Origin: Candidatus Calditenuaceae archaeon
GTDB taxonomy: Archaea; Thermoproteota; Nitrososphaeria_A; Caldarchaeales; Calditenuaceae
Direction of reading: 5' to 3'
Assembly: GCA_025059595.1 (NCBI GenBank)
Contig: JANXDI010000012.1
Coordinates: forward strand, 1 to 32,000
DNA length: 32,000 nucleotides
Position numbers and translations under genes: made by a program. Shown here piece after piece: positions 1,260-16,602 of this stretch (positions are counted from its first letter, which is position 1; every line of letters begins with the position of its first letter). The notes below the pieces were generated by a model, which was not told the DNA's origin, did no database searches, and was given only the letters and a program-made list of their open reading frames with translations.

Positions 1260-2779
1260 CCCGGACGACGCTTCTACTACTGGCTGTCAAGCTGAAGCAG
1301 TATCTAGGGCAGGTCAGACGCTCCCCGCGCAACATAGTGTCTCTGCTCACAGTATACTTTGTCTGGCTCTCAGTTATCGGTCTAGTCTCGCTTATGCTGA
1401 GGTTCACGGGAATACTTTCCGGCACAGGCCCGCAGGGCTTCCTCGGCATACTTTCAGAGGTCACTGTCACGGCCATCCTAGCGGTTGGCGCTTTTCTCGG
1501 AATCAAAGGCGGAGTAACGGCTCTTCCATATGAGCTGGACTACGTCCTCACCTCTAACGTGAAGCCGCGAGTCTTCCTTCTTGCGGACCTCCTCTTCCAG
1601 CTCTGCCTATTAACTCTCTTCATAATTCCGCCGACATCCCTCATGCTCACAACACTCACATATCCTGGACACCTAGCCTATCTTGGAAGAGCCGTGCCGC
1701 TCTACCTGCTCGCCATTCTGATGTCTATCATGCTCTCGCACGTTCTTGGCGTGTCCCGGAGCATTTTGGGTGAGAGGTTGGTGAGGCTCTTGGGTTGGGG
1801 GCTCCTTACACTCATATTGACGCCTCTGCTACTCCTGGCGCTCCGGATTCCTCCAGCCTATCCCCTGACGCTTCATCCGGCACTCCTACTTTCGTCCGCG
1901 ATAGAGGCGAGGGGGGAGAGCCTATACTGGTTGACGCCCTACCTCGCAGTCCTCGGCCTCGCATACATCCGCCTCTCCAACATCAGCTTCTACTCATCAG
2001 TCTCGCCACTCCTCTTCACCGTCCTCATGGAGCCGCCCAGCAAACTCTCAAAATACATCAGGCTCCCGGCCGGGCTGGATGGCCTCCTTGCGCTGGGGGC
2101 TGCTCGGGGCTATTCATCCCTAATGTATAGGCTTCACCTCGTGAGGGTTCTGAGAGAAGGGAGCCTCTGGACCGGAATAACGGTTCTGCTTTTCCTGACC
2201 CTCGCTAACACGGCGGTCCCGAGGCTGATAGGCGTCGCCCAGTTTCCTGAAGTGGCCGAGCTGACCATGATAGCCCTCTACATCCCACTCCTTCCGGCTC
2301 TTCTCTCGATTAACTGGAGCATATCGGAGAGACCGAACACATGGGTCGTCAACCTATCCACTATGGGCGAGAAGCACTACATCCCGGGCCTCTTCCTCGC
2401 ATATGTTACCGTTACCTTCCCCTTCTCCATCCTCCTCTACGGCCTCGTCTCCATCGGCTCAGCCGATATGCCGTTCCTCCTAGTTGACATGGTGCTTCTA
2501 CTGGCCATGTCCATCTTCGGCTCAGCCCTCTCAATCCTCGTCTCACTAATCGCGAGGCTCTCACCCTCCCCCCTCTCCCTCACCTCCCTCCTCTACATCC
2601 TCATACCTCTCACAGGCTCAATCCTCCTCTCCCTCCCAATCCTAGTCATAAGGCTCTACGAGCCGCTAGCCAGCTCACCCACCCCAAGCCTCATGGCCAA
2701 CATGGCCGCATATGTGGGAGTCACGTCGGTGGCCCTCTACAAAATACTTATGATGGGGGGCGCGAAATATCTCAAATAG
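1256..2779 (+). CDS. large polytopic membrane protein, putative ABC exporter permease
   Basis: TTG start overlaps the TGA stop of the ABC ATPase (TTGA, 4-nt overlap), which suggests translational coupling. 507 aa, Leu-rich, with at least 10 hydrophobic segments. No family motif recognised. Confidence 0.6.
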   Translation: MTRTTLLLLAVKLKQYLGQVRRSPRNIVSLLTVYFVWLSVIGLVSLMLRFTGILSGTGPQGFLGILSEVTVTAILAVGAFLGIKGGVTALPYELDYVLTSNVKPRVFLLADLLFQLCLLTLFIIPPTSLMLTTLTYPGHLAYLGRAVPLYLLAILMSIMLSHVLGVSRSILGERLVRLLGWGLLTLILTPLLLLALRIPPAYPLTLHPALLLSSAIEARGESLYWLTPYLAVLGLAYIRLSNISFYSSVSPLLFTVLMEPPSKLSKYIRLPAGLDGLLALGAARGYSSLMYRLHLVRVLREGSLWTGITVLLFLTLANTAVPRLIGVAQFPEVAELTMIALYIPLLPALLSINWSISERPNTWVVNLSTMGEKHYIPGLFLAYVTVTFPFSILLYGLVSIGSADMPFLLVDMVLLLAMSIFGSALSILVSLIARLSPSPLSLTSLLYILIPLTGSILLSLPILVIRLYEPLASSPTPSLMANMAAYVGVTSVALYKILMMGGAKYLK

Positions 2780-2849: not shown

Positions 2850-4820
2850 TTGTCCCAGAAATGCTTTAATAACCCAGCCGTTAATGTATTTTCTAAGTTG
2901 GTCCAAGAGGCGAAGGAAGAGAAGGAGGTAAAGGTAAAGGAGAAGAAGGAGAAAAAGAAGGAAAAGAAAGAGGAGATAATCAAGCAGTGGAGGGGGATAG
3001 ACGTTAAGCCGCTTAACCCCTCCTTCGAGATTCTCGACAGATACGTAATGAGGGAGAAATTCGCTGAGGTCATTATAGCCTCTCCTCCCGGCAGGATTGT
3101 TGAGCCGATATACTACGTTGTTGAGACCCCCCTCACGCCCAAAGAGGAGACCGCTCTGGAGAAAGTTAAAGACATTCTGACCAAGGAGCTCGACTTCCCC
3201 AAAATTGGCGAGGAAGAGGAGGTTAGGAAGATTATTCACGACACCACCTTGAGGGTTATCAAGAAGTATAAGCGGGCGGTGGGAATGCCTTCTCTTTCAG
3301 ACGAGGTCGTTGAGAAGTTCTTGTACTATATTGATAGGGACCTCATGGGTTTCGGCCCGCTCAACGTGATTATGGAAGACTTCAAGGTCGAGGACATTTC
3401 ATGCGACGGGCTCAACATCCCGATTTACGTCTGGCACAGGGACTTCGAAAGCATGCCCACCAACGTCTCCTTCACGGATAGGGAGGCTCTCGACGACTTC
3501 ATAATTCATCTAGCCCATAAGGCGGGTAAGCACGTCTCATCCGCCTTCCCCATAGTGGACGCCATGATTTACGGGAAGCACAGGCTCGCCGCGACTTTCA
3601 GGGAGGAGATTTCTCCGCGCGGGAGCACCTTCACGATTAGGAAATTCAGGGAGAAGCCATTCAGCGTAACCGAGCTCATACTCAGCAACGTCCTGAATAG
3701 CGAGATGGGCGCGTATTTCTGGCTCCTACTCGAGAACAAGGCCAGCCTCATGCTAATAGGAGCGACGGGCAGCGGAAAGACAACCCTCCTAAACGCACTC
3801 ACGACCTTCATCAAGCCTAGGATGAAAATAGTCACATGCGAGGAGACCGCTGAGATTAACATTCCAAGGGACAACTGGGTCAGGTTTGTTACGAGAGAGA
3901 GCTACGGCCTCGGTGCGACGGAGAGGGGCGAGGTGGCCCTCTTCGACCTCGTTAAAACTAGCCTCAGGTATAGGCCAGACTATCTTCTAGTCGGTGAGGT
4001 TAGGGGCGAGGAGGCCTTCGTCCTCTTCCAAGCCATAGCGACCGGACACGGAGGCCTGACCACCGTCCACGCCGAAGACGTTGAGAGCGCGATTAAGAGG
4101 CTTATGAGCCCGCCGATGAATATTCCCGAGACACACATCTCCCTTCTCGATGCAATGGCGCTGATTCAGAGGGTCCAGCTCCGCGGCAAGACCCAGCTCT
4201 ACGGCAGGCGCGTCAGGTTCATCTGGGAGGTTGAGGACGCCCACAAATACAGGAAGATAGCCGAGTGGGACCCTGTCACGGACACGTTCAGGGTAAACTT
4301 CGCTAATAGCCTCCAAATAGAGAACATCTCGCTGATGAATGGTATTAGTAAGGAGGACCTCATGCTTGAGCTCTGGAGGCGGAAGGAGCTCCTCGAGTGG
4401 ATGCGAGAGAACAAGATAACAGACAACGACAAAGTCGCGAGCATTATCCTCTCCTATTACGCAGACCCTGAAAAGCTGATTGCCGAGGCGGGAATCACTG
4501 TTAGGAGGCCGCCTATTCCCGCTGTGGCAACGCCTAGGAGGCTGGAGACCGTCGCTCTGCCCACCGCGCTACCGTCCGTGGTCTCGAGCTCTCCGCAGCC
4601 AGCTGCTCCGACCGTTAGTGCGGAGGAGCTGGAGAGGGAGGTTAAGCCGATAGCCGACTACATCGTTGAGGCTATTCTCAAGAGGAGTGGCCCGACTCCG
4701 TATTGGCAGGTCTTCGTAAAGACGCCCTATCCGAGGGACGTGATTATCAGGGCTATGCGCTACCTGAAGGACAAGAGACGCATCGATATTATCGGCGGCG
4801 TTGTAGAGCTTATGGAGTAG
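2850..4820 (+). CDS. type IV filament assembly ATPase (FlaI/PilB/VirB11 superfamily) with extra N- and C-terminal regions
   Basis: Walker A GATGSGKTT, Walker B/Asp box DYLLVGEVRGEEA, His box GHGGLTTVHAED. The N-terminal domain pattern EPIYYVVETPLTPKEE is typical of archaeal FlaI-like ATPases. The exact start is uncertain (TTG 2850 or TTG 2898), but it must lie upstream of ATG 3047 because the conserved N-domain begins before it. Confidence 0.9.
   Translation: MSQKCFNNPAVNVFSKLVQEAKEEKEVKVKEKKEKKKEKKEEIIKQWRGIDVKPLNPSFEILDRYVMREKFAEVIIASPPGRIVEPIYYVVETPLTPKEETALEKVKDILTKELDFPKIGEEEEVRKIIHDTTLRVIKKYKRAVGMPSLSDEVVEKFLYYIDRDLMGFGPLNVIMEDFKVEDISCDGLNIPIYVWHRDFESMPTNVSFTDREALDDFIIHLAHKAGKHVSSAFPIVDAMIYGKHRLAATFREEISPRGSTFTIRKFREKPFSVTELILSNVLNSEMGAYFWLLLENKASLMLIGATGSGKTTLLNALTTFIKPRMKIVTCEETAEINIPRDNWVRFVTRESYGLGATERGEVALFDLVKTSLRYRPDYLLVGEVRGEEAFVLFQAIATGHGGLTTVHAEDVESAIKRLMSPPMNIPETHISLLDAMALIQRVQLRGKTQLYGRRVRFIWEVEDAHKYRKIAEWDPVTDTFRVNFANSLQIENISLMNGISKEDLMLELWRRKELLEWMRENKITDNDKVASIILSYYADPEKLIAEAGITVRRPPIPAVATPRRLETVALPTALPSVVSSSPQPAAPTVSAEELEREVKPIADYIVEAILKRSGPTPYWQVFVKTPYPRDVIIRAMRYLKDKRRIDIIGGVVELME
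2912..2976 (+). repeat. polypurine tract encoding a Lys/Glu low-complexity segment
   Basis: 65 nt contain only two pyrimidines (t2929, t2935), and 2936-2976 is uninterrupted purine. It encodes KEEKEVKVKEKKEKKKEKKEE in the N-terminus of the ATPase ORF. Confidence 0.8.
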
Positions 4821-6594
4821 TCTGGAGCTCGAACAATCCTACTGTTATATTTCCGGATAACCATATGGCTATGAGGGAGATTACTGACATTATTATGGCG
4901 TGTTTGAATCCTCCGGCTATCGTTGAGCCTGAGATTTTACCGGCGACTATTCCGCTTATGACTGCGATTATTATGACTGGTGGGAGGAAAAAGTGTATGA
5001 ACTCAGCGGACGATATGCTTAGGCGGGCAAGCTTCAGCAGGCCCTTCATGAAGGAGACAAGTATGACTACGACGACTATGAGGAGGACCGCGGTGAGGTA
5101 GGGAATAATCATCAGCGGCTTCAGCGTTGCGCGCTTCTGCCTCTCAATCTCCTCCAAGTCCTCCGAGAACGTGGCGAGAACTTCGAATGTCTCCGGCGCT
5201 CCGCCGCCGACATCTATCGCGTCTATCAGTATGAAGACTCCCGCCCTCTCGAGCCAGCCGTAGGTCCGCTTGGCAAAGTCCTCGTAAATCTTTCTGAGGG
5301 GCATTCCCCAGCCTATCTGCCTAGCCATGATTTTGAGGTGTTTGCTGAAGGCTCCGTAGGGGTTTCGCGAGAGGTCGATGATGCACCTCTCGGGGCTTAG
5401 GCCGGTCTTCCTGACCTCCGTGATGTCTCTGAGGAAGAGTGTGAGACCGTGGACGACTGAGAAGTTCTCGGAGCCATATCTCTGGTATGCGATTGCGGCT
5501 GGTGTGAAGAGGATTATGGAGAAGAGGATGAGGGCTATGGAGGACTCGTAGCCCATCTCGATTCCCATGGCCTTCCTTATCTCGACTATGATGCCGGATG
5601 TTATGTCGAAGGGCGGGATGTATTGCAACTCTGTGAGGAAGAAGGGCACCGCGAAGAGAGCGAGGAAAGCGAAGGCCGCGGGCATGGTGAAGTATAGGAC
5701 CCTCATCGGCCTCGGGTCTGTTATTGGGTATTTCGGCTGGCTTATGTCTGCGAGGTAGAGGAAGAGCACCGCGAGGAGGGGTAGGAAGAGGTAGGCTATC
5801 ATGGCGAACTGCTCGGAGGGCATTATGAGGAACTCGGTGGGGAGGGCTCTTGAGACTATGTAGATTGTGAATAGGACGAGTGAGAGCATCATCGTTATCG
5901 CCGCGTAACCCTCCATCAGCATGCCCATCCTCTCACCCACGATACGCATCTTACCCATCCGCGAGGTGAAAATCTGCTCCGTCTTCCTGATGAGGAAGTG
6001 GACCACGTCTCCGCCGCTCCGAATCGTCGAGGCGTAACCCATGAGGAGGTCTCTATACTCCTTGCTGGGTAGGCCTTTGGCCATCTTCTCGATTGCCGAG
6101 ACAGGGTCGAGTCCGCCGACCTTGACGTTCAGGTCTGCGAGCTTGGCGGCCTTGGCTATGTTGGGCATGAGCTGGCTCTGGGCGAGCCGTGAAAGGCTTT
6201 TGTATGGTGGTATTCCGCCTGTGGACATGACTGCGAGGTAGGCGGCGGCGTAGGGGACCTCGCTCTCGAAGAGCGTCGCGGCGGAGGAGGCAGCCATGTA
6301 TGGCCAAGCAAGCCCCAAGCCGAGGGCGATCAGGGGGATACTCCCAATGAGCCCAAGCCCAATTAGGCTGCCTGTGAAAAGATAAACAACAACGGCCAAG
6401 GGGATGGAGATTATCGCAGTTACCACCACCACAGCAGCCACAATTGAAGTGAAGACCTCCGGGTAGATGCGTTTCCCAGCGCTCTCGAGCTTGGATGGTA
6501 TTCCCGGCGCTATTCGGAGAAGAAGCGTCCCAAGACCCCTAAAGTTCGAGTATGAGAAGCTGGTGAAAGACTCGCTGAACCCCATGACTAACAA
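4810..6594 (-). CDS. FlaJ/TadC-type polytopic membrane platform protein
   Basis: 594 aa with two soluble T2SS-F-like segments (e.g. GYASTIRSGGDVVHFL and IMARQIGWGMPLRKIYEDF...IDAIDVGGGAPETFE) separated by clusters of TM helices. It sits next to the ATPase. ATG at 6594 lies about 20 nt downstream of a TATA box. Confidence 0.85.
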   Translation of the reverse strand: MLVMGFSESFTSFSYSNFRGLGTLLLRIAPGIPSKLESAGKRIYPEVFTSIVAAVVVVTAIISIPLAVVVYLFTGSLIGLGLIGSIPLIALGLGLAWPYMAASSAATLFESEVPYAAAYLAVMSTGGIPPYKSLSRLAQSQLMPNIAKAAKLADLNVKVGGLDPVSAIEKMAKGLPSKEYRDLLMGYASTIRSGGDVVHFLIRKTEQIFTSRMGKMRIVGERMGMLMEGYAAITMMLSLVLFTIYIVSRALPTEFLIMPSEQFAMIAYLFLPLLAVLFLYLADISQPKYPITDPRPMRVLYFTMPAAFAFLALFAVPFFLTELQYIPPFDITSGIIVEIRKAMGIEMGYESSIALILFSIILFTPAAIAYQRYGSENFSVVHGLTLFLRDITEVRKTGLSPERCIIDLSRNPYGAFSKHLKIMARQIGWGMPLRKIYEDFAKRTYGWLERAGVFILIDAIDVGGGAPETFEVLATFSEDLEEIERQKRATLKPLMIIPYLTAVLLIVVVVILVSFMKGLLKLARLSISSAEFIHFFLPPVIIIAVISGIVAGKISGSTIAGGFKHAIIMSVISLIAIWLSGNITVGLFELQTTP

Positions 6595-6708: not shown

Positions 6709-7110
6709 ATGATGAATAGAAGAAAAGCAGGTATCAGCCCGGTCGTAGCAACGGTGATACTCGTCGCAGTAGCAATCGTAATAGCCATCGCGGTAGCCTT
6801 CTGGGCCTCAGGACTCGTAGGAGTCTTCACAAGATTCGAAAAAATAGAGATACAAACAGCATACTGGGACGGAGAAAGAGTCGTAGTGATTGCGAAGAAC
6901 ACCGGGTCAAGCCCAGCAGTAGTAGACATGATATTAGTGAACGGATTGCCCTGCGTAACGGCAACAAACATAGCACTTCCGGTGGGAGGCTCAGCCATCA
7001 TCAATGTCAGTGTAGGAGCCACCTGTGTTCAACAAGGAGGCATTACTAACGAGATTGCACTCCACACAACTAGCGGAAAGACCTACCCAGTAGCGGTCCT
7101 CGTACCGTAA
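6709..7110 (+). CDS. archaeal type IV pilin-like protein (class III signal peptide), candidate major pilin
   Basis: N-terminus MMNRRKAG|ISPVVATVILVAVAIVIAIAVAF has a short basic leader, Gly at -1, and a hydrophobic helix, as in the archaeal pilin N-terminal domain. This is followed by a small beta-rich domain (VVVIAKNTGSSPAVVDMILVNG). 133 aa with two Cys. Confidence 0.85.
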   Translation: MMNRRKAGISPVVATVILVAVAIVIAIAVAFWASGLVGVFTRFEKIEIQTAYWDGERVVVIAKNTGSSPAVVDMILVNGLPCVTATNIALPVGGSAIINVSVGATCVQQGGITNEIALHTTSGKTYPVAVLVP

Positions 7111-7214: not shown

Positions 7215-8117
7215 TTGAGCCGCGCCGGGCATAGGCCTCTCCGCACGCTGGTGGTAATCTGCGCATATAATGAGGAGAATAGCATCGCCACGCCAGTCGC
7301 TCAGGCCATCCGAGAAGGCTTCGAGGTTCTGGTCGTTGACGACGGAAGCGAGGATAGGACGTCGGAAATCGCTAAGGCCCATGGTGCCGAGGTAATCAGA
7401 AACGACGTGAGGGGTGGAAAGGCTTTAGCGCTGAGTAGAGCGATATCTTACGCGAAGGAACATGAATACGAAGCGATAATTGAGGTAGGTGCAGACGCGG
7501 TGCCGGTAGAGGGAGGCATAAGCAGGCTATACAGATACCTCACCCTTCCAAGCGTAGGAGGTGTCTCGGCGCGCCAAATACCACTGGGGAGTGGGCCGGC
7601 ATACAGGATTGATGAGCTCATGTGGAGCATTCTAGCGGAGGGGAAGTCGCTTCAGCAGAGGCTGGGCAGGCAGGTCCACCTCGGCGCGGTGATGTATGGT
7701 GCCAAACTCAGGCACATTAGGGCAGTTGCAGGGGTAATCAACGATGACGAGTTCGTCGGCATACTCGTGAGCAGAGACGGTGGGAAAAACTACTTCGCGG
7801 AGGACTGCGTAGCCTATTTCGACGCATCCTCATCAATAAAGCACCTCTTCAATAGAAGGAAGCGCATGATATTGGGGCACCTCCAGCTCGGAAAATCAAC
7901 CGCGCCCAGCATGCAGCCAAGCATACTCACAGCCGCAACACTACTAGCAATAGTCAAGAAAACGTCCAGACTGATGTGGCTTGTACCTGCCCTAATAATC
8001 GAAATAGCGGCGCGCTTGTCGGCATTTAGAGATTCGCGAAAAGTCGATAAACTGGCGGAATACGTTAGGTGGCACACGCATGGAATGAAAAAACCGATAC
8101 AGCGCCATGTAACATAA
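7215..8117 (+). CDS. family 2 glycosyltransferase (polyprenyl-phosphate sugar synthase-like)
   Basis: N-terminal GT-A signature VVICAYNEENSI...VLVVDDGSEDRTSEIA and a C-terminal hydrophobic segment (LTAATLLAIV...WLVPALIIEIAA), as in DPM/ArnC/GtrB-type enzymes. TTG start. Confidence 0.85.
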   Translation: MSRAGHRPLRTLVVICAYNEENSIATPVAQAIREGFEVLVVDDGSEDRTSEIAKAHGAEVIRNDVRGGKALALSRAISYAKEHEYEAIIEVGADAVPVEGGISRLYRYLTLPSVGGVSARQIPLGSGPAYRIDELMWSILAEGKSLQQRLGRQVHLGAVMYGAKLRHIRAVAGVINDDEFVGILVSRDGGKNYFAEDCVAYFDASSSIKHLFNRRKRMILGHLQLGKSTAPSMQPSILTAATLLAIVKKTSRLMWLVPALIIEIAARLSAFRDSRKVDKLAEYVRWHTHGMKKPIQRHVT

Positions 8118-8169: not shown

Positions 8170-8586
8170 TCAGATTCTTCCAATCAGTATGGCGCCCACT
8201 ATTATGAGGGCCACACCTATCCACTGCTCTGGGGTGGGTTTCTCGCCTAATGCTAAGATTCCGACCAGAACTATCGAGAGGATTGATAGTGAGAGGAAGA
8301 ATCTTCCCAGCATTACTCCGAGGTCGCTGTAAACCCAGTAGCTTAGGACAGCGACTGTGAAGCCCGTAAGCATGGCGAGTATGAACCACTTATTGAAGAA
8401 GAGCGTGAAGAGAAATGTCAGGGAGACCTCAGGCGCGCCGACCTCCCTCAACGCGAATCCCCAGAAGAGCGTGTTCAGCCCCACAAAGACGGCGACGAGA
8501 AGCCCAACAACCCAGATTGTAGAGTCCACTCCTCCCCCTCCTCGGAGCATTGTTCGCGGAGATTGCGGATATAACTCTTCAAACAC
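8170..8586 (-). CDS. small single-EamA-domain membrane protein (ArnE/F- or SMR-like candidate flippase)
   Basis: 138 aa with 4 predicted TM helices. The C-terminal GEKPTPEQWIGVALIIVGAILI is the typical EamA domain end. The start may instead be the internal Met (MLRGGGG, 8550). Confidence 0.6.
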   Translation of the reverse strand: MFEELYPQSPRTMLRGGGGVDSTIWVVGLLVAVFVGLNTLFWGFALREVGAPEVSLTFLFTLFFNKWFILAMLTGFTVAVLSYWVYSDLGVMLGRFFLSLSILSIVLVGILALGEKPTPEQWIGVALIIVGAILIGRI

Positions 8587-8657: not shown

Positions 8658-10007
8658 GTGAAGAGAGGCGGAGACGGCTGGAGGACGGTGGCCACGCTTG
8701 CCCTAATAGTCTCCTTAGGGTTCGCGATACGCTTCACCATCTGGATATACCCAATGTATGGTGTTCAGAGCCTACTAATCTTCGACACGGGTTCTTACCC
8801 CATCTTCGGGCTGGCCTACATTCACGCGATAACCACGATGAACTTCACAGCACTCACCAGCATAAACCCGGGCGTCCCACCCATCGGCATGCTCCTCACA
8901 GGCCTATCAACGCAGACGTTTGGAGAGCTTATCGGCCCGATCCAAGCCAGCCTCATCCCACCTGTCACGGCCTCAGCCCTCACAGCAATCCCAGCCTACC
9001 TCATCGCCAAGAGATATGCGGGGAGGGCGGCCCTTCTGGCCCCGGCCCTCGTGTCGTTCGACCCATTCCTAATCCAATTCTCCGCAACGTACCTCGACTC
9101 CATCGGTACGCTTTTCGCAGCGGCGTCGGCCGCCTACGTCATCGATTCGAGTAGCAGAAGGTCCTTCAGTCTCGCCATCTTCTTCGCCACCCTCGCAGCT
9201 CTGACAAAACTCTCGTTCACCATCTTCACGGCGATATTCGCGCTCCTCCTACTCCTCAACAAGGAGCTCACTGCGAGGAGGGCTATCCTCTACCTGCTTA
9301 TTCCGCCAGCCTCGCTGGTCCTCAGCCCCGGTGTCTGGAGACCCTCCAACATCGGGGCCATAGTCGAGGGGCATCTCGCCTTTAACAACGTGCCTCTTGC
9401 GCCTCTCCTCAGCCCATTCGTCATAGACGTCCCACTATCCCTACCTTGGCACATCCTCTCATACCTCGGAATGGGTCAAGTCTCATGGAACACTCTGCCG
9501 CACGTAACGCCGCTGGCCGTCCTCCTGATGGTGGCCTACCAAGCCGCGAGAAATGAGTTGCGGATACCTCGTGGCGCCGCGATTCCAGCCTCGGCGATAG
9601 TCTTGGCAATCTTCCTGCTGCCGAGGGGCTACTGGACCTACAGCTGGGCCGGGGGCGCCGTTCAGGGGGTTCTGGCGCGCCAGTTCTATCCCTACTACTT
9701 CTACCCTGTAGGCCCCTTCCTAGCAGTCTTAGCGGCGGCAGTCTTCGCATCCGACGCAGGCCACAGACCCGCGGGCAGACTCGCGACCTACCCCGCACTG
9801 CTGGCCGCCCTCGTCTCGCCGCTAGCCGTGGTGATGAGCTTCGGCCTCCCCTACTGGGACTTCATCTTCAACCTAATCTACAGCGCCTCGCAGGGAAGCT
9901 GGATGGCGGAGGGGATAGCGGCCGCGGGCATCACCACGGCCATTCTCGCCGCGGTCTTAGCGGCAGCCGAGCTGATACACAGACGGGCACAACGAATAGG
10001 GGGTTAG
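8658..10007 (+). CDS. polytopic membrane protein, putative GT-C fold glycosyltransferase (ArnT/PMT-like)
   Basis: 449 aa with about 11-12 TM helices. The first extracytoplasmic loop carries an acidic/aromatic motif (LLIFDTGSYPIF) in the position of the GT-C DE/DxD loop. It is adjacent to the GT2 and EamA genes. Family assignment is inferential. Confidence 0.5.
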   Translation: MKRGGDGWRTVATLALIVSLGFAIRFTIWIYPMYGVQSLLIFDTGSYPIFGLAYIHAITTMNFTALTSINPGVPPIGMLLTGLSTQTFGELIGPIQASLIPPVTASALTAIPAYLIAKRYAGRAALLAPALVSFDPFLIQFSATYLDSIGTLFAAASAAYVIDSSSRRSFSLAIFFATLAALTKLSFTIFTAIFALLLLLNKELTARRAILYLLIPPASLVLSPGVWRPSNIGAIVEGHLAFNNVPLAPLLSPFVIDVPLSLPWHILSYLGMGQVSWNTLPHVTPLAVLLMVAYQAARNELRIPRGAAIPASAIVLAIFLLPRGYWTYSWAGGAVQGVLARQFYPYYFYPVGPFLAVLAAAVFASDAGHRPAGRLATYPALLAALVSPLAVVMSFGLPYWDFIFNLIYSASQGSWMAEGIAAAGITTAILAAVLAAAELIHRRAQRIGG

Positions 10008-10023
10008 GCGGCTTAAGCACGCA

Positions 10024-11328
10024 TTAAGGAGCCTGCGAGGCAAGAGGTGCTCTGCAGGCCGTCATGACGTTTCCTCCCTCAACCCACCACTTACAGACGT
10101 AGACCACCCCTAATATCTCAGGAGAGCGGAAGTCAAACCGCCCGTAGTTGTCGCGAGTTATGAGGCCCTGCGCCCCATCCAGTCTAATCCTGTAGATGAA
10201 GAAGCCTCCATAATCCTTCTTACTCGTGCCAGGGTCCGTGACTTCTATCGTGAAGAAGCCCAAGTAAGAGGTCCCTGGCGAGAGAGTCGGGATGCTCTGG
10301 CTCAGAGGCGAGGCATTCAAAGTAATATTATTAAACGATACAAACTCTAAAACAACATTAACGTTTCTCAGAGGCTCCGTTATGTTCCCAAGCGTTACAA
10401 TGTAGGGTATCGTAACATTGACCTCCAAGTCGCTCCCATTCATCAGGACCATCATGTTCCTCTGAAGCGTCATGACTTGGAGCGGAATCGGCCTCGGCGG
10501 GTCAAGCCTCACACCGACATCAACATGGACCACTACGTGGCTGCTGGCTACGACTCTTACCGGGTTGGGTGATACGTTGGCGCAGGAGCCGCCCGTCAAA
10601 TACGGGCACTGGAGGGCCCGCACCTCGTAGACGCCTGGCGCGATGTTGAACGCGAATACGTCGCTCAGGTCTTCGACCCTCGACACGAGCCTGCTCATTA
10701 CCGCCTTTTCCCTACAACCTGTCGCGAACTCCTCGCCCCTTACGGAGACGCATCCCCTTGTCATGTTGACGTTCACGTCGTCCTTCACGACAGACACCTC
10801 AACCTCGTATCTGTGACCTAGGCTTACGTTGCTTAACTGAACCATCAGGAGGTAGGGTAGCTTGTTCGGCCCGATTGGCTCCCCTGACACAAAGCTATTC
10901 CCCCTAAGGGTTGGGGCCCTCAAGACAACCACCTCGTTAGGCTCCAGATAGTAGTTTAGAGGCTTCATCAGAATGGCGCCGGGAGGAAGCTTATATTGCT
11001 CGTCGACAACCTGGAGGCCGAACCTGTTACTCTCGATATAGAGCGTAGGCACTGTAATCTCTATCGGCCCCCTATTCATCATCGTCAAGTATAGAGCCCT
11101 CTTTTGGAATGGGTGGAGCTCGGGGGGCTGCATCGTCAGAGTTATCTCCAGCTCCTCGTTAAGCTTCTCCACCTCGAACTGAAGCCTCCTCGAGACCTCA
11201 TCCATGAAGAGGGTCTGGAGCTGCTGAATATAGAGCCACATCGGAATCATGACGGTGAAAAATATCATCACCGCAACCGCCGTCCCAACCACCGCGGAGA
11301 TACCTGCCGACCTACTGCGACGCCCCAT
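10024..11328 (-). CDS. large pilin-like surface protein (class III signal peptide), 434 aa
   Basis: MGRRSRSAG|ISAVVGTAVAVMIFFTVMIPMW prepilin-like N-terminus, then the module LYLTMMNRGPIEITVPTLYI that resembles the first beta domain of the small pilin. 8 N-x-S/T sequons and 6 Cys in three close pairs. ATG lies 1 nt after the upstream stop. Confidence 0.7.
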   Translation of the reverse strand: MGRRSRSAGISAVVGTAVAVMIFFTVMIPMWLYIQQLQTLFMDEVSRRLQFEVEKLNEELEITLTMQPPELHPFQKRALYLTMMNRGPIEITVPTLYIESNRFGLQVVDEQYKLPPGAILMKPLNYYLEPNEVVVLRAPTLRGNSFVSGEPIGPNKLPYLLMVQLSNVSLGHRYEVEVSVVKDDVNVNMTRGCVSVRGEEFATGCREKAVMSRLVSRVEDLSDVFAFNIAPGVYEVRALQCPYLTGGSCANVSPNPVRVVASSHVVVHVDVGVRLDPPRPIPLQVMTLQRNMMVLMNGSDLEVNVTIPYIVTLGNITEPLRNVNVVLEFVSFNNITLNASPLSQSIPTLSPGTSYLGFFTIEVTDPGTSKKDYGGFFIYRIRLDGAQGLITRDNYGRFDFRSPEILGVVYVCKWWVEGGNVMTACRAPLASQAP

Positions 11329-11329
11329 C

Positions 11330-11857
11330 TCAGTTAGCCACCCCCGTCCTCGTAACCGTTATCGTGATAACCAACGTTGTGGTAGTGGTTGAGGTGACTA
11401 CCGTCGTCGTCGGGACAGTTGTGGTTCGGGCGTCAGACGTAGTTGAGACGATTGTCGTGACGGTGGTTGTGGGAGTGGTCACGGTGGTAGTAACGTAGAT
11501 GAAGGCCGTGGTCCGTGTGGTGGAAATAGTATAAACTGTCACCCATTGAGTAATCGTGGTCGTTGAAGTGATGCGCGTAGTGGAAAATGTAGTTGATGCG
11601 CTGGTTACTGTCCGTGTTCCACTTGTAAGAGTCGTGGTTGTGAACCTCGTTGTATAGCTAGTGACAGTTCTCGTGCCCTCGGTTAAGGTCGTCGTCGAGG
11701 ACGTTGTTACCCAGCTCGTGGTCGTGGTGGTTGTTGTCGTGGTGGTCGTGACAACCCTGAAGGTCTGGGCCAACCCAGAGAGGCTCAACGTAAGAAGCAC
11801 GATAACAGCTAGCGCAAGAGCTAGTGCCTTCCCGCCGCGCCTTACTCCCTTATCCAT
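11330..11857 (-). CDS. secreted Thr-rich low-complexity protein, 175 aa
   Basis: ATG start with a Sec-like signal peptide (KALALALAVIVLLTLSLSGLA|QT), followed by about 140 aa dominated by Thr/Val/Ser. This includes an 11-Thr run and an internal repeat TLTEGTRTVTSYTTRFTTT / TLTSGTRTVTSASTTFSTT. It overlaps the upstream gene by 16 nt. Confidence 0.65.
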   Translation of the reverse strand: MDKGVRRGGKALALALAVIVLLTLSLSGLAQTFRVVTTTTTTTTTTTSWVTTSSTTTLTEGTRTVTSYTTRFTTTTLTSGTRTVTSASTTFSTTRITSTTTITQWVTVYTISTTRTTAFIYVTTTVTTPTTTVTTIVSTTSDARTTTVPTTTVVTSTTTTTLVITITVTRTGVAN

Positions 11858-12426
11858 GAATTAACCCACCTCCTAATTAGAGGATACACAACTAGCGGCC
11901 CTAGGGAAAGATAGAGCATTACCTGCCAGCCGAGCGGCCACCAATGAGGCACGAATATAAACGCTTCACCTGAGCCCTGACCACTACCACCCCCCACAGT
12001 CGTCGTGCTCGTCGTCCTGCTCGTTACAGTCGACGTGACATACACCGTAGAAGTGAACGTGCTTGTCAATGTCCTCGTGGTGGTGAAAGTCGTGGAGACC
12101 GATGTGACTGTGTTGGTTATAGTCGGGCTAAAAGACGTGCGAACCACAGTCACTACACTGGTTATCGTAGAAGTTCGAGTAGCGGTGAAGCTCGTCGTGG
12201 TGCGTATCACGATATGTGTTCCGGTTGATACGACCACGGTGGTTACCCTAGTCACTGTCTCTGGAACTGTTCGCGTCGTTGAGGGGGTTACTGTTGTGGA
12301 CGTAGATACGATGGTCGAGACGGTTGTAGTGGTTGTCCGCGGAATGGTCGTCGTAGTGACTCTTGTAGTGGTCATAGTCACGGTCTCCGTGACCGTTGAC
12401 GTTGTTGTGGTGGTGATTATAGGGGT
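11333..12426 (-). repeat. extreme Thr-codon (ACN) low-complexity coding region spanning two adjacent genes
   Basis: The plus strand is strongly G/T-rich (GTN/NGT). The minus strand encodes T/V/S/R-rich sequence in residues 381-524 of the 574-aa protein (11995-12426) and residues 36-175 of the 175-aa protein (11333-11752). Confidence 0.85.
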
Positions 12427-13566
12427 GACATCCATGGTCCTCACAACAACTCTGCCGATGTCGAAGACATATACGGGCGTGTCGAGCACAACGCTGTACT
12501 GGTTGATAATCAGGGAAAGGCCGCCCATCAATATCTGGACCCTGAGAATGCCCCGAGCGATCAGCACGTTGTTGCAGTCGTATATCTCGACAACAAGCTC
12601 GTAGTCACCGTCCTCCCAGAAGCCAATCGAGAGGATCATCTCATCGATTCTCATATTATTGAGATTAAGCCGCATTTTGGAGTAGTCGATGTAGTTTCCG
12701 AAGCTGCTCGGGAATCCCCAGCTTTGGGGGAGTATTGTGACGTCTGGCATGAGGGATTGAATCTCGACTACTAGAGGTGTCCGGAGACCGCCCCTATCGA
12801 GCTGGACGTAAACCTCTTGTGGTAGGTCGCCGGTTACTCTCGCAGTCCCCCTAGCAACCACTCCATTCGCATCCGTGACTGTTACTTGGAAGTCGTAGGA
12901 GGCCATTCTTCTGCTGGCGTTGAGCAGCCTGACTTTGATGAAGTCTGTTGTGACTCCGTAGATGTTCTCCTCCTTGGGGTCCACCAGCTCTATCAGGAGC
13001 CAGTGGTTTGTTGGGAGTTCGCAACCACTTGCTAGACCATAGCGCGGCTCAGAGGCCTCGAAGGTCGCTACCTTGAAGAGAAGCGTCTCGCTGTCCGGCT
13101 TGGAGAGGGCCGGGTTGTCAGGGTCGTAGAGCTGCTCCGGAATGTAGTGGACTTGAACGAGTATTCTGTCGCCCGGAGAGCAGACGCTACCGGGGCATCT
13201 GAAGGCTAAGGCTGTTCTCTCATTTACCGGGATTCTGGCGTGGTCGTCTATCCCGGAATCATAGACCACGGTGCCATTCTTTATGGTGAGTATTCTGAAG
13301 ACGATGACCGGCTCCCTGCCCGTGTTTCTTAGAAGCATGACGCCCCTGTCGGCTCCGCCAAAGATTTTATCAGGATAGTAGACATATTCTGCGCCTATGT
13401 TAGACCTGAGGATTAGCGCCTGGTCGCCCAGCTGTCTAACCTCCTCCTGACGCCAGACTCCCGCATAGCTACTTAGAAAGACCCACAGGGCTATACCGGC
13501 GGACAAGACCGCCGCAAGTATCAACACAGTCGAAACGATCTCGCTGTATCCTCTTTTCCGCCTCAT
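11842..13566 (-). CDS. large pilin-like surface protein with Thr-rich stalk and C-terminal hydrophobic anchor, 574 aa
   Basis: MRRKRG|YSEIVSTVLILAAVLSAGIALW class III-like signal. A body of about 340 aa is colinear with the upstream 386-aa protein. This is followed by a 144-aa Thr/Val/Ser/Arg region, a GGGSGQGSGE linker and a hydrophobic tail WWPLGWQVMLYLSLGPLVVYPLIRRW. Confidence 0.75.
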   Translation of the reverse strand: MRRKRGYSEIVSTVLILAAVLSAGIALWVFLSSYAGVWRQEEVRQLGDQALILRSNIGAEYVYYPDKIFGGADRGVMLLRNTGREPVIVFRILTIKNGTVVYDSGIDDHARIPVNERTALAFRCPGSVCSPGDRILVQVHYIPEQLYDPDNPALSKPDSETLLFKVATFEASEPRYGLASGCELPTNHWLLIELVDPKEENIYGVTTDFIKVRLLNASRRMASYDFQVTVTDANGVVARGTARVTGDLPQEVYVQLDRGGLRTPLVVEIQSLMPDVTILPQSWGFPSSFGNYIDYSKMRLNLNNMRIDEMILSIGFWEDGDYELVVEIYDCNNVLIARGILRVQILMGGLSLIINQYSVVLDTPVYVFDIGRVVVRTMDVTPIITTTTTSTVTETVTMTTTRVTTTTIPRTTTTTVSTIVSTSTTVTPSTTRTVPETVTRVTTVVVSTGTHIVIRTTTSFTATRTSTITSVVTVVRTSFSPTITNTVTSVSTTFTTTRTLTSTFTSTVYVTSTVTSRTTSTTTVGGGSGQGSGEAFIFVPHWWPLGWQVMLYLSLGPLVVYPLIRRWVNSWIRE

Positions 13567-13567
13567 G

Positions 13568-14698
13568 TTAATACTCCTCCACCAGCACGTCTATGCGCGC
13601 TATATCCATCAATAGGATTGGGGGTACGTCAACGAACACTGAGTCTGTGAAGATGCCCCTCGGTACGTTCGTAATTACGAACCTAGATGTGATTAGCTCG
13701 CCGTTACAGTCGTACAGGTTTACGGTTATCCTGTATCTTCCACCCACTAGGTCGTTGACGCCCAGCTCAACCTCAACCACGTCAACCATCTTCTCAGCAT
13801 TTGACCATAGAGTCACTCCCGAGGCATGAGCCTTCCAAGGTATTCCTCCTAGCCTCCACTCACGCTGAAGCACGTTAAACCCGGCAGCCAGAACATGGAT
13901 GCGGAGGGGGGTCTGAAATCCTCCGAAACTGCCTGTGAAACTATACATCTCGTTGCCGATGGTAGGCACGTTGCGTGTAGCGAATCCGTAGGCGCCGGAC
14001 GCGTTGATGACTTGTATATCAACTGAGACTGTGGCACTTGAGGATGCGTAGGGAAATCTGGCATGGATTCTGTTGTTAGGTTGCGACGGAATCTTTCCCG
14101 TGTCACTATATGTGACTGGGTCTATCACATCCACCGTCATCCAGTTGGGGGGTAAGGGGCATCTAGCCGCTACTCCGCCTGGCGGATAGACAAAGACCGT
14201 CTCAACATATCGCATCTCATCCGCAGACAGGACTGGATTCTCCTCGTTAAACAGGGCGGAGGCGACATACCAGACCCTCAGCCTCAGAGTCTCCAAAGGA
14301 AGGCATGTGGCGCAGAGGGGTATAACGCCTCCGCTTAGTGTGGCATTTCCGCTGGGGAGTAGCTCGGCCAGCTCGGTGAAGCCGGTCGACGGATACGAGG
14401 CTTTTAGTGCTCCTCCCGGGGTCAATATCTCTATTCTAGTGACTATGACTGGCACATCCGCTATGTTTCGGAGAATGATGCTTCTCTCCCTGCTTGTGAA
14501 GTTAACAGCCTCGAAGGAGAGCTGGGCCGATGTCTTGACTAGGAGTATAGCCCTGTTAGCCTCGTTGGTGGAGGATTGGAGCGTGGCGCCAAGCCACCCG
14601 GAGGCCACGCCGAGGATGAATATTCCCATGCCTACCGTTAGGGCGGCCAAGATAACAGCCCCTATAGTAGTGTCTCCATTACTCCTCCCCCTCGTCAT
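13568..14698 (-). CDS. large pilin-like surface protein, paralog of the 574-aa protein
   Basis: With ATG 14698 the N-terminus is MTRGRSNG|DTTIGAVILAALTVGMGIFILG, a short basic leader plus hydrophobic helix. The ORF extends to GTG 14728. Colinear motifs shared with the downstream paralog include RYRITVNLYDCNGELITSRFVI vs DYELVVEIYDCNNVLIARGILRV and CPLPPNWMTVDVIDP vs CELPTNHWLLIELVDP. Confidence 0.75.
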   Translation of the reverse strand: MTRGRSNGDTTIGAVILAALTVGMGIFILGVASGWLGATLQSSTNEANRAILLVKTSAQLSFEAVNFTSRERSIILRNIADVPVIVTRIEILTPGGALKASYPSTGFTELAELLPSGNATLSGGVIPLCATCLPLETLRLRVWYVASALFNEENPVLSADEMRYVETVFVYPPGGVAARCPLPPNWMTVDVIDPVTYSDTGKIPSQPNNRIHARFPYASSSATVSVDIQVINASGAYGFATRNVPTIGNEMYSFTGSFGGFQTPLRIHVLAAGFNVLQREWRLGGIPWKAHASGVTLWSNAEKMVDVVEVELGVNDLVGGRYRITVNLYDCNGELITSRFVITNVPRGIFTDSVFVDVPPILLMDIARIDVLVEEY

Positions 14699-14753
14699 AC
14701 GCCGTCGACGGCCGCCCAGTATAACCACCTTCTAAAGCCTATGAACCTAACAG

Positions 14754-14827: not shown

Positions 14828-14900
14828 CATTTTCGCACACCTGGTTAGGTTAATTATAACTATTGGCCATAGCTGTTCGGTTCATTAGAAAGCTAAAGAT

Positions 14901-14912
14901 TCTTATATCATT
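14901..14912 (+). promoter_or_regulatory. TATA box candidate for the membrane/zinc-ribbon gene
   Basis: TCTTATATCATT lies about 25 nt upstream of in-frame GTG 14932. The stretch 14863-14930 is AT-rich and unlikely to be coding. Confidence 0.35.
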
Positions 14913-14931
14913 AAAAGACCTTCATCTAATA

Positions 14932-16602
14932 GTGTGTAGTGGTGTGACGCGCCAAGTATCATCCCTCAATAGGATGCTCGGGTTCATGGGCTTATCGCTT
15001 ATGTTGTCGTTCGCTTCTTGGATTGTCGGTGGCGAGTTTTTCAGGATTGTGATAAGCTCAGTCCTGCCTTTCGAGGAGCCTTTAAGAGCTTATCCCTCAT
15101 ACGCCTTCACAGGCCTGATACTCGGGGCGATGAACGCCCTCATCCTATACAAGTTAGTCAGTGGTTCGAAAGGGATTCTGGCTTTTATGGCTTTGGGGGC
15201 TGTCGCGGGCTGGGGAGGCGCCTTTGCTCTGACGATTTTTGCCAGCATATTTGACGTCTCTGTTGTATTGGGCTGGGCTTTAGGGCTGGCTACCTTTATC
15301 CTCATTATGCTTGGTCTGGTGAGGCTTTTGGCGATTGAGGCTATGAGGCCCCAGCTTCAGCGGGAGAGAGGTCAGATTGTTCAACTGCCTCCACAGACAA
15401 AGCCTCAGCCCGCACCAGCGATAACTGCTCAAGAACCATCTGCCCAGCCACCGGCCCAGCAACCAGAGGAGGCTCCACCCACTCCGCCTCCAACCTCAGC
15501 AGCAACTCCTCAGCCCCCTCCCACCGCACTGGCCGAGGCTAAACCATCTCCGGCTGCTCCAGCCACTATTCCTCCCCTGACGACCATTATTCCACCCACC
15601 CCTCCGCCACCGTCAGAGCCTACTCAGAGTATCGATGAGCTCGAGGAGGTGCTTGTAGAGATTATAGCTGAGGAGGGAATTACGGAGCTTATTCCGCTTC
15701 CAAACAACACGTCGCCCGAGGGCGGCTCTTATCCTGAGATTGAGTCTAAGCTTGGAGTTGACACAACTACGCTCCTCAAGGTTGTGAAGAGGCTGATGGA
15801 TAAGAATTATGTCAGGCTTTCCGGGGTGGAGTTTAAGAAGGTTGCCTGCCCTCACTGCCAGAGTGCCCTAAACGTCCTTAATCTTAGCTGCAGGGCCTGC
15901 GGCTCGACCAACATCGGGAGGCAGAGGATTCTTCAGCACGAGGCCTGCGGTTATCTCGGGCCTGAAGACAGCTTCACCGTCGGCGGAAGAACCATTTGTC
16001 CGCGCTGTGGAAGCGGTGTGAAGATTCTGAGGGGCCCGCTCGAGGAGGAGCATGAACAGATACTCAAGGTCCACTCAAGCTTCTTCATTTGCTACAACTG
16101 CAACGAGGTCAGCCCAGACCCCCACATCTCCTTCAGGTGCCTTACCTGCGGACTAGACTATGACTTGAGCGGCTTCGAGTTCAAGACCTTCTACAGATAC
16201 GCAATCAACCCCGAAATGATAAGCGGGCTGCAGGAGCAGAAGAGGCCGATTAGGCTAATCGCTGAGGAGTTGAAGAGGCTTGGATTCGAGGTTCAGATTG
16301 GGGCCCGGATTACGGGGGCGTCGAAGGTCCGGCATAAGGTTGACCTTCTCTACAGCCGCCTCGGCCAGACTAGGGGGGCTGTCTTCCTGTTCAGCGATAG
16401 GGGGGGCATGAAGATTCACGATGTGATGAAGATTATTGTTATGAAGGCGGACACTAGAATAGACAGCGTCAAGATACTCTGCCTCGGACAGCTGGACAAC
16501 GATTCGAAGAGGCTGGCCGAGCTTTACAATATTTTGGTCATCGAGAATATAGCTTCGAAGGAGCTGGCGACTGACGTTATGCCGCGCATAGTCTCCGCGT
16601 AG
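14932..16602 (+). CDS. membrane-anchored protein with Pro-rich linker, winged-helix-like segment, three zinc ribbons and a C-terminal alpha/beta domain
   Basis: 4 N-terminal TM helices, then a linker of about 95 aa rich in Pro/Ala/Gln (PPQTKPQPAPA...PPTPPPPSEP). Next comes an HTH-like segment (SYPEIESKLGVDTTTLLKVVKRLMDKNYVRLSG), the Cys motifs CPHC..CRAC, HEAC..CPRC, CYNC..CLTC, and a C-terminal domain containing GASKVRHKVDLL. The ORF is open from TTG 14863; the likely start is GTG 14932 or ATG 14974. Confidence 0.7.
   Translation: MCSGVTRQVSSLNRMLGFMGLSLMLSFASWIVGGEFFRIVISSVLPFEEPLRAYPSYAFTGLILGAMNALILYKLVSGSKGILAFMALGAVAGWGGAFALTIFASIFDVSVVLGWALGLATFILIMLGLVRLLAIEAMRPQLQRERGQIVQLPPQTKPQPAPAITAQEPSAQPPAQQPEEAPPTPPPTSAATPQPPPTALAEAKPSPAAPATIPPLTTIIPPTPPPPSEPTQSIDELEEVLVEIIAEEGITELIPLPNNTSPEGGSYPEIESKLGVDTTTLLKVVKRLMDKNYVRLSGVEFKKVACPHCQSALNVLNLSCRACGSTNIGRQRILQHEACGYLGPEDSFTVGGRTICPRCGSGVKILRGPLEEEHEQILKVHSSFFICYNCNEVSPDPHISFRCLTCGLDYDLSGFEFKTFYRYAINPEMISGLQEQKRPIRLIAEELKRLGFEVQIGARITGASKVRHKVDLLYSRLGQTRGAVFLFSDRGGMKIHDVMKIIVMKADTRIDSVKILCLGQLDNDSKRLAELYNILVIENIASKELATDVMPRIVSA

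Follow-up and report, generated by a model that had tools for sequence, protein, structure and literature searches.

The 32,000-nucleotide stretch analyzed here (the window; positions 1 to 32,000 of contig JANXDI010000012.1 from a Candidatus Calditenuaceae archaeon) carries on its minus strand, at 10024-14728, a block of four tightly packed genes that encode three pilin-like proteins (g386, g574, and g434) and a 175-aa Thr-rich protein, g175. Two of these genes hold an extreme Thr-rich module: the tail of g574 and almost all of g175 behind its signal sequence. A first-pass annotation made from the sequence alone had singled out these two adjacent, Thr-dominated open reading frames (ORFs), and both are present on the minus strand with the peptides that it quoted. 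Across relatives, the two modules occur together and match in length. The features of the block are as follows.

13568-14728, minus strand: g386, a 386-aa pilin-like paralog of the g574 head, without a Thr tail and without a C-terminal anchor
11842-13566, minus strand: g574, a 574-aa pilin-like surface protein with a Thr-rich tail
13405-13566, minus strand: g574 residues 1-54, class III signal peptide (MRRKRG/YSEIV) and long hydrophobic alpha-1 helix
12424-13404, minus strand: g574 residues 55-381, tandem Ig/FnIII-like beta-sandwich domains (the head)
11989-12423, minus strand: g574 residues 382-526, Thr-rich tail of 145 aa in T-x-T-x register
11935-11988, minus strand: g574 residues 527-544, Gly-rich linker GGGSGQGSGEAFIFVPHW; most orthologs have a G-rich segment there
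11845-11934, minus strand: g574 residues 545-574, C-terminal hydrophobic helix WPLGWQVMLYLSLGPLVVYPLI with the basic end RRWVNSWIRE
11867-11873, minus strand: Shine-Dalgarno (SD) motif GGAGGTG, 9 nt upstream of the g175 ATG
11330-11857, minus strand: g175, the 175-aa Thr-rich protein, with its stop 1 nt before the g434 ATG
11768-11857, minus strand: g175 residues 1-30, Sec-type signal peptide or signal anchor, with a basic n-region, a 20-residue hydrophobic core, and SGLA/QTFRVV
11333-11767, minus strand: g175 residues 31-175, about 145 aa, 51% Thr
10024-11328, minus strand: g434, a third pilin-like protein, starting MGRRSRSAG/ISAVVGTAV, with a weak UpsB match (E 7.8e-3)

Gaps of 1 nt separate g386 from g574 and g175 from g434, while g574 and g175 overlap by 16 nt. 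The head of g574 is related to g386 (24% identity, E 7e-15), and both g386 and g434 are syntenic in all loci. All three pilin-like proteins start with prepilin-type (class III) signal peptides, for which the family support (TIGR02537, UpsB) is weak. In g574 we found the short basic N-terminus, the [KR]G cleavage motif, and the hydrophobic helix of at least 20 residues that define this class; g386 and g434 are similar. The N-terminus of g574, MRRKRG/YSEIVSTVLILAAVLSAGIALWVF, matched the TIGR02537 archaellin/pilin N-terminal domain at E 1.1e-3, with 18.4 bits against a 20-bit cutoff.

We modeled g574 with AlphaFold2 using 16 orthologs. The model had a helix at residues 7-54, beta-sandwich domains at 57-380 with a pLDDT of 80-90, and a second helix at 545-573. 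Using Foldseek, we matched the N-terminal part to the type IV pilin of Pyrobaculum calidifontis (8fk7; target-normalized TM 0.71, rmsd 3.8 Å), so that g574 shares with solved archaeal pilins an alpha-1 helix followed by an Ig-like beta-sandwich. The head matched FnIII tandems, RbmA, complement MG domains, and transglutaminase beta-sandwiches. The Thr region (383-540) was drawn as long hairpins at a pLDDT of 25-40. As an observation apart, 18 and 12 stretches resembling the Ig-like domains of the g574 head occur in two giant proteins, P0100 (5044 aa) and P0102 (1771 aa), respectively; the head domains are therefore also found as repeats in very large surface proteins.

The C-terminal helix of g574, which runs up to the stop codon at 11842-11844, is kept in all tail-bearing orthologs with an invariant P562. 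Such a helix is atypical for a filament subunit and probably serves as a membrane anchor. Despite the hydrophobic helix and basic tail, no NCBIfam CTERM model matched g574 at E up to 0.1, and the protein does not appear to carry an archaeosortase-type sorting signal (PGF-CTERM and relatives). Because basic residues lie at both ends, the simplest topology would place both termini in the cytoplasm (before prepilin processing) and about 500 residues outside, with the Thr tail as a membrane-proximal stalk.

The composition of the two modules is extreme. Thr makes up 43% of g175 overall, 51% of it past the signal peptide, and 46% of the g574 tail, compared to 6-8% in neighboring genes. The first-pass description of the 175-aa protein as little more than Thr-rich material behind a signal peptide is accurate. 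Equally so is its description of the sequence as almost free of Pro (1-3%), with two residues in mature g175 and five in the tail. About 68% of residues are beta-branched (Thr, Val, Ile). Thr codon usage in both modules is the same as in other genes of the window, and the run of 11 Thr reads exactly ACG ACC ACC ACG ACA ACA ACC ACC ACG ACC ACG, as had been reported. Tandem Repeats Finder returned just a weak period-3 signal over this 33-nt run (76% matches, score 31-38), and direct repeats in the Thr-rich DNA are short and at most 80% identical. As the first-pass annotation had held, then, this is not a simple slippage repeat, nor is the Thr-rich material the product of recent slippage or duplication. 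The 19-aa internal repeat that it had noted in g175 does exist (14 of 19 aa and 32 of 57 nt identical), at marginal strength: 7 of 200 shuffles did as well. Nor do the segments have the makeup of mucin-like (Pro/Thr/Ser) domains, with their little Pro, lack of tandem repeats, and Thr positions in register.

The DNA itself was invariant at the depth available. A check for length polymorphism, which had been proposed in the first-pass annotation, detected no polymorphism across the Thr-rich DNA: contigs from three hot-spring metagenomes were identical over 10900-13700, and a fourth run yielded fragments only. The sole difference was a 1-nt deletion at window position 12847 in the contig of run X3, within the head-coding region of g574, which is either a frameshifted variant or an assembly error.

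To place g574 among relatives, we searched for homologs. A first search recovered 19, all from Caldarchaeales or Nitrososphaerota metagenome-assembled genomes, and an exhaustive search recovered 35 representatives among 1.84 billion proteins. Homologs came only from hot-spring metagenome-assembled genomes of Candidatus Caldarchaeum, Caldarchaeales, and Nitrososphaerota, which marks the organism as a member of the Aigarchaeota. Two size classes emerged among the representatives of the exhaustive search: long ones of about 540-640 aa, and short ones of about 358-399 aa without the tail, the transmembrane helix, and the basic end. The tail and the C-terminal helix were present in all 16 aligned orthologs, at full-length identities of 34-69%, and the Thr tail, transmembrane helix, and basic end recurred in all seven further long relatives fetched (541-614 aa). 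The Thr module is thus real, conserved, and narrowly distributed, being found in Caldarchaeales only. Had the Thr-rich segments been missing from the orthologous loci of relatives, the first-pass proposal would have lost its footing; they are conserved there. Because the modules are kept while the globular domains have diverged to only 30-73% identity, and because their codons are mixed and no DNA repeat underlies them, the selection at work is on the protein, as that annotation had suggested.

Within the tail, the positions of Thr are also patterned. In the alignment of 16 orthologs, 56 of 145 tail columns are at least 80% Thr, and the autocorrelation of Thr conservation (-0.38, +0.53, -0.52, and +0.44 at lags 1 to 4) describes a period of 2. 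The tail of the window's g574 shows the same alternation by itself. Positions between the Thr residues vary among Ser, Val, Ile, Arg, Pro, and Tyr, and several landmarks with Pro and Gly (TTIP, PSTT, SPTIT) are conserved. Judged from these alignments, positions in the tail are held more tightly than would be expected of a linker defined by composition alone, with the caveat that aligners tend to stack Thr on Thr. The alternation is weak in g175.

Public gene calls put a Val-rich ORF on the strand opposite g175 in four of five loci examined. Substitution patterns cannot separate the two strands because the Thr codon ACN and the antisense Val codon GTN share their wobble position; we therefore decided by ORF integrity, the SD motif, and the signal peptide. 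The sense frame was open across the whole interval between g574 and g434 in all 14 loci examined, and the antisense frames never were, their longest open stretch spanning only 23-69% of the interval (67 aa in the window). The search for similar ORFs at related pilus loci that the first-pass annotation had recommended was productive: 14 other loci carry a same-strand ORF of 170-238 aa and 39-51% Thr between the stop of the g574 ortholog and the start of the g434 ortholog. An SD-like motif precedes the g175 start in all 15 loci. In the window, the GGAGGTG arises from the Arg-Arg-Trp codons of the basic tail that closes g574, and the same bases at 11867-11873 would thereby serve both as a stop-transfer signal of g574 and as the ribosome-binding site of g175. 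All g175 copies have a basic n-region and a hydrophobic core of about 20 residues (the Kyte-Doolittle 19-residue maximum is 2.5 in the window copy), and in most of them a small-x-small motif and Gln follow, where the signal peptide would be cleaved. Among 14 aligned orthologs, one Trp, one Gly, one Pro, and a C-terminal motif, T(R/K)(T/S)xxG/A(N/G), are kept. On these features of the sequence, g175 is very probably a real gene.

Annotation practice has hidden this family. Antisense Val-rich ORFs were called in L001 at 9589-10074(-), in L003 at 9697-9999(-) and 10015-10179(-), and in L004 at 8738-9142(-) (L numbers denote individual loci), the equivalent in the window being 11661-11864(+); one European Nucleotide Archive (ENA) contig annotation calls the sense ORF. 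Because the Val-rich ORF is called on the wrong strand, the g175 family is largely missing from protein databases. A word-indexed search for g175 homologs found none, probably since poly-Thr proteins saturate the word index, and two exact look-ups of g175-like sequences returned no match and were uninformative, having missed even an annotated ORF. There was likewise no Pfam or NCBIfam match to g175, hence none that could relate it to donor-strand or TasA-like archaeal fibers (threads, bundling pili), and the donor-strand idea raised in the first-pass annotation found no specific support. An apparent g574-g175 fusion in L007 (a 616-aa ORF) proved to be an artefact of an N-run scaffold gap at about 11300-11450, inside the Thr-rich DNA, whose low complexity evidently gives assemblers trouble.

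The tail and g175 are coupled in occurrence and in length. A g175-like ORF was found in all 15 tail-bearing loci and in none of the three loci whose g574 ortholog, identified by synteny, is tail-less (L015, from Ca. Benthortus lauensis, L021, and L022); in these three, the g434 ortholog comes next. A rough neighbor-joining tree of the head domains scattered these tail-less forms among tail-bearing clades, which suggests that tail and g175 changed in presence through several independent events. Lengths were compared under fixed boundary rules. The tail was counted from the residue following the D-x-T/S motif at the close of the last beta-sandwich through the final Thr of its terminal run, and mature g175 from the residue past the signal-peptide site through its C-terminus. 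Over a range of 141-210 aa, the two differed by at most 5 aa in the 15 loci (Pearson r 0.994), and only 4 of 720 permutations of clade means gave an equally small maximum difference. The lengths by clade are as follows.

Clade A: tail 141-146 aa, mature g175 142 aa
Clade B: tail 142-144 aa, mature g175 145-146 aa
Clade C: tail 143 aa, mature g175 148 aa
Clade D: tail 163 aa, mature g175 166 aa
Clade E: tail 171 aa, mature g175 174 aa
Clade F: tail 210 aa, mature g175 206 aa

The simplest reading of this match is selection for equal length of the tail and g175. The coupling, together with the putative membrane anchor at the end of the tail, goes beyond what the first-pass annotation had described.

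Upstream of the four-gene block lies the rest of a type IV pilus-like locus, and three genes between its small pilin and g434, next to the operon, are candidates for glycosylation.

2850-4820, plus strand: T2SSE/FlaI-like assembly ATPase (Pfam T2SSE E 8.7e-33; FlaI-type match E 4.9e-109, below its cutoff)
4810-6594, minus strand: T2SSF/UpsF-like pilus platform membrane protein (Pfam T2SSF E 1.2e-21; UpsF and BasF matches)
6709-7110, plus strand: 133-aa small type IV pilin (TIGR02537 22.3 bits, above the cutoff; UpsA E 6.5e-5; Pilin_N E 5.8e-3)
7215-8117, plus strand: 300-aa family 2 glycosyltransferase (GT2), candidate polyprenyl-phosphate sugar synthase (Pfam Glycos_transf_2 E 8.5e-18)
8170-8586, minus strand: 138-aa EamA/ArnE-like small membrane protein, candidate lipid-linked sugar flippase (Pfam EamA E 1e-6)
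8658-10007, plus strand: 449-aa polytopic membrane glycosyltransferase of the GT-C fold (PMT_2 / GT39-GT83-like)

The 133-aa protein is likely the major pilin; no prepilin peptidase gene was identified in the window. The best NCBIfam neighbors of the GT2 protein were PpgS, AglJ, and a dolichyl-phosphate hexose transferase, and because all of these matches fell far below their cutoffs, its lipid-phosphate acceptor is a matter of inference. The 138-aa protein reached 20 bits against the 92-bit cutoff of NCBIfam ArnE (E 5.9e-4), and a flippase role is suggested solely by its synteny with the GT-C gene. The window copy of the 449-aa protein had no match in Pfam, NCBIfam, or Protein Data Bank searches with the single sequence or with profiles, while PF13231 (PMT_2) was matched by 9 of its 24 full-length orthologs (best E 1.3e-12). 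Its AlphaFold2 model (pTM 0.85) placed ArnT (5f15/5ezm) at the top of the Foldseek results, followed by STT3, AglB, PglB, and PimE, all at probability 1.0; by its predicted fold, the protein is a GT-C enzyme. NCBI labels some orthologs "glycosyltransferase family 39," yet no PMT entry appeared in the Foldseek top 50, where ArnT (GT83) and oligosaccharyltransferases were best.

Taken together, the GT2, ArnE-like, and GT-C proteins would form a three-component set for extracytoplasmic glycosylation, which fits a published scheme (PMC11127046). In 11 tail-bearing loci, the GT-C gene is no farther than about 6 kb from the pilin block; the flanks present on the three short tail-less contigs did not yield it. 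This gene neighborhood is suggestive only of a link between the set and the Thr modules. Another candidate for a flippase of lipid-linked sugars is a GtrA/DPMS-TM family protein at 25436-26002 (plus strand; PF04138 E 2.9e-25), some 13 kb away from the operon. Separately, we counted eight N-x-S/T sequons in g434, two in g574, and none in g175, and the operon products may therefore carry differing glycan types. Reviews from 2018 and 2021 described the enzymes behind archaeal O-glycosylation as unidentified or elusive (PMC6098224, PMC8241124), and we found no later identification in the literature searched, the coverage of which was incomplete.

Other genes around the operon were recorded in passing. 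A 579-aa membrane protein at 14863-16602 (plus strand) combines zinc-ribbon-like motifs with a TackOD1 output domain (E 5.9e-23) and a long linker rich in Pro, Ala, and Thr; in most loci it is a neighbor of the pilin operon, and it is a possible regulator of the surface structure. No Pfam or NCBIfam match was obtained for a 507-aa ORF (1256-2779, plus strand) located between the genes for an ABC ATPase and the pilus ATPase. At two of the tail-less loci, a small Ras/Arf-like GTPase lies near the pilin operon (L015 5984-7973 and L022 7588-8109), in the place taken by the glycosylation genes in the window; beside it in L015 are two genes of about 120 aa that look roadblock/LC7-like, judged by eye only and without a family search.

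We propose, with moderate confidence, that the g574 tail and g175 form a two-part, matched stalk pair in a type IV pilus-like surface operon and that the pair is probably O-glycosylated. The tail would link the extracellular head, via the Gly linker, to the C-terminal membrane helix, and because it joins head and helix in this manner, it could act as a spacer that sets the distance between head and membrane. From its own SD-led cistron, g175 would be translated and then exported by its N-terminal signal sequence as a single Thr-rich segment of tail length. The tail and g175 would act together, either side by side or by spanning the same distance. Both modules would probably be O-glycosylated at the outer face of the membrane, with the GT2 synthase making the lipid-linked sugar donor, the ArnE-like flippase moving it, and the GT-C transferase using it, and the outcome would be a heat- and protease-resistant stalk.

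Within this proposal, the pair could be an ordered beta assembly of Thr ladders or two glycosylated, extended chains of equal reach. The register and the tight length match lean toward order and contact. Pulling in the opposite direction are the AlphaFold2 confidence, the dissimilarity of the two segments, and the net positive charge that each carries. The fullest version, in which tail and g175 build one ordered, length-matched Thr-ladder assembly (a two-chain stalk, or an anchored template that stacks g175) and the neighboring set is its O-glycosylation machinery, strikes us as doubtful. Of the two interpretations offered in the first-pass annotation, the O-glycosylated stalk gained indirect support from the conserved GT2/ArnE-like/GT-C set, and the extended beta-structure gained support from the strict period-2 register across 16 orthologs. 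The observation made in that annotation was confirmed, and its interpretation partly supported.

Several results weigh against the proposed stalk pair. The tail, the anchor, and g175 are contiguous, so a single deletion could remove all three and their co-absence may be partly mechanical; the length match is harder to explain in that way. We looked for a duplication origin and rejected it. A Smith-Waterman comparison of tail and g175 gave z = 1.5 against shuffles, and hhalign of the two ortholog alignments gave a probability of 0.13 and z = 2.8 against column shuffles, out of register; on that result, we also dropped an impression that Pro/Gly turn landmarks line up between the two. With no similarity beyond composition, gene conversion or recent duplication does not explain the length match. 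Both modules carry a net charge of about +6 to +7, with Arg as its only source (the tail has 9 Arg, 0 Lys, and 2 Glu; mature g175 has 8 Arg, 0 Lys, 1 Glu, and 1 Asp), which makes simple electrostatic pairing less likely. The pLDDT of the modeled tail establishes neither order nor disorder. For L003, L016, and L017, all of them tail-bearing, the flanks at hand yielded no GT-C set, and the GT-C enzyme might just as well have a pilin, an S-layer protein, or a lipid as its acceptor. None of the RNA runs screened contained the sequence, word matches of 4% being low-complexity noise. Finally, we considered Thr stalks as a general device of the organism and rejected the idea: within the window, such segments occur in these two ORFs only, and a 715-aa right-handed beta-helix surface protein (29360-31507, plus strand) with a Sec signal peptide and a C-terminal membrane helix has no Thr stalk, so the stalk is not a general anchor device here.

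An alternative is that the modules are compositional, disordered, mucin-like linkers, with the tail as a flexible glycosylated tether and g175 as an independent secreted coat or matrix glycoprotein, the two not interacting and only composition and rough length being under selection. The low pLDDT of the tail, the extreme composition with mixed codons, and the nearby GT-C set are all compatible with this view, and glycosylated linkers rich in Ser and Thr occur widely on the surface proteins of archaea (PMC6098224, PMC6911244). Yet the period-2 Thr register is kept across orthologs with heads of just 34-70% identity, g175 conserves its single Trp, Gly, and Pro and its C-terminal motif, and lengths agree within 5 aa while presence and absence are perfectly coupled in 18 loci. 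Such close tracking is not expected of independent disordered linkers, and we regard this alternative as unlikely.

In curli, an anchored CsgB and a secreted CsgA of equal length share one stacking fold and have recognizably similar sequences. By a like logic, the anchored tail could be a template on which secreted g175 stacks into a self-assembling Thr ladder, that is, a Thr/Val-rich beta-solenoid or an amyloid-like fiber or sheath. The T-x-T register of the tail, the wealth of beta-branched residues, and the long beta hairpins drawn by AlphaFold2 at low confidence would suit such a structure, as would an exported g175 without any other anchor and the equal, co-varying lengths expected from one shared stacking unit. 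Against it, and in contrast to CsgA and CsgB, tail and g175 have no detectable sequence similarity; g175 shows the period-2 signal only weakly, the AlphaFold2 model has very low confidence there, and the resemblance to curli is by analogy. We consider self-assembly of this kind quite improbable. The fungal Als/Flo adhesins, in which Ig-like heads sit on an O-mannosylated stalk rich in Thr, Val, and Ile that is anchored at its end to membrane or wall, offer a similar picture; like curli, they are an analogy of general design. Least credible of all, at the edge of what we would entertain, is that g175 is not a gene and its Thr-rich frame a by-product of a real antisense Val-rich ORF or of no ORF: antisense calls in L001-L004, a g175 sequence not found in a large protein collection by look-ups that were uninformative, and the RNA screen could be read that way, but an open sense frame in 14 of 14 loci, an antisense frame of limited coverage, a start codon, SD motif, and signal peptide kept in 15 of 15, a stop that abuts the g434 start, a sense call by one ENA pipeline, and a length that co-varies with the g574 tail all speak for the gene.

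The proposed stalk pair has partial counterparts in known systems. Sulfolobus SlaB combines beta-sandwich domains, a glycosylated Ser/Thr linker, and a C-terminal transmembrane helix, and it acts as an anchor and distance ruler (PMC6911244). It shares with g574, where these features are predicted, the extracellular beta-sandwich domains, a stalk with a Ser/Thr-rich part, and a single C-terminal transmembrane helix. SlaB differs in having a Sec signal peptide rather than a prepilin-type N-terminus and a stalk that is mainly a trimeric coiled coil with a short Ser/Thr part; no length-matched second Thr-rich protein is known for it, and we found no sequence homology between SlaB and g574. In haloarchaeal S-layer glycoproteins, a Thr cluster directly precedes the C-terminal anchor and is documented to be O-glycosylated, by enzymes still unidentified (PMC6098224, PMC8241124). 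Those proteins use a PGF-CTERM/archaeosortase lipid anchor, the motif of which was not detected in g574, and have neither a pilin N-terminus nor a partner gene. Their Thr cluster is also shorter than 145 residues.

Two further comparisons concern glycosylation. The type IV pilins of Saccharolobus islandicus and S. solfataricus devote 37% of the globular domain to Ser and Thr and show densities consistent with O-glycans (PMC7347861). Like the locus described here, they represent a type IV pilus context in a thermophile with unusually high Ser and Thr. There the residues lie on the surface of a folded major pilin domain, whereas here Thr is concentrated in distinct low-complexity segments (about 46-51% Thr), one in a minor pilin-like protein and one in a small protein with a gene of its own. 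In streptococci, disordered Ser/Thr-rich regions outside the cytoplasm are glycosylated by GtrB and the GT-C enzyme PgtC2, which shields these regions from proteolysis (PMC11092751); GT-C systems of three components have also been described in general (PMC11127046). The parts are alike: a GT2 lipid-phosphate sugar synthase, a small flippase, a GT-C transferase, and Ser/Thr-rich extracytoplasmic segments, the roles in our locus being candidate ones. The streptococcal system is bacterial and undecaprenyl based, and co-encoding with the enzymes in a pilus operon, register, and length matching are not reported for it. Its Ser/Thr-rich regions are shorter.

While Ser/Thr-rich stalks on archaeal surface proteins are already known, a separate gene for a Thr-rich partner that tracks stalk length within 5 residues in different lineages and is gained or lost with the stalk appears to be undescribed. 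Such a partner points to a physical ruler or a paired structure and not to a loose linker. Also apparently undescribed is the placement of substrate-like Thr modules beside a complete candidate lipid-linked GT-C set, which offers a concrete candidate enzyme-substrate pair. Wrong-strand Val-rich calls hide this family, and similar extreme-Thr genes may be missed elsewhere in the same way. If the ordered Thr-ladder assembly is true, it would be a previously undescribed archaeal surface structure, and the neighboring set, if it acts on these modules, would provide the first machinery for protein O-glycosylation in archaea that can be identified and whose substrates are known.

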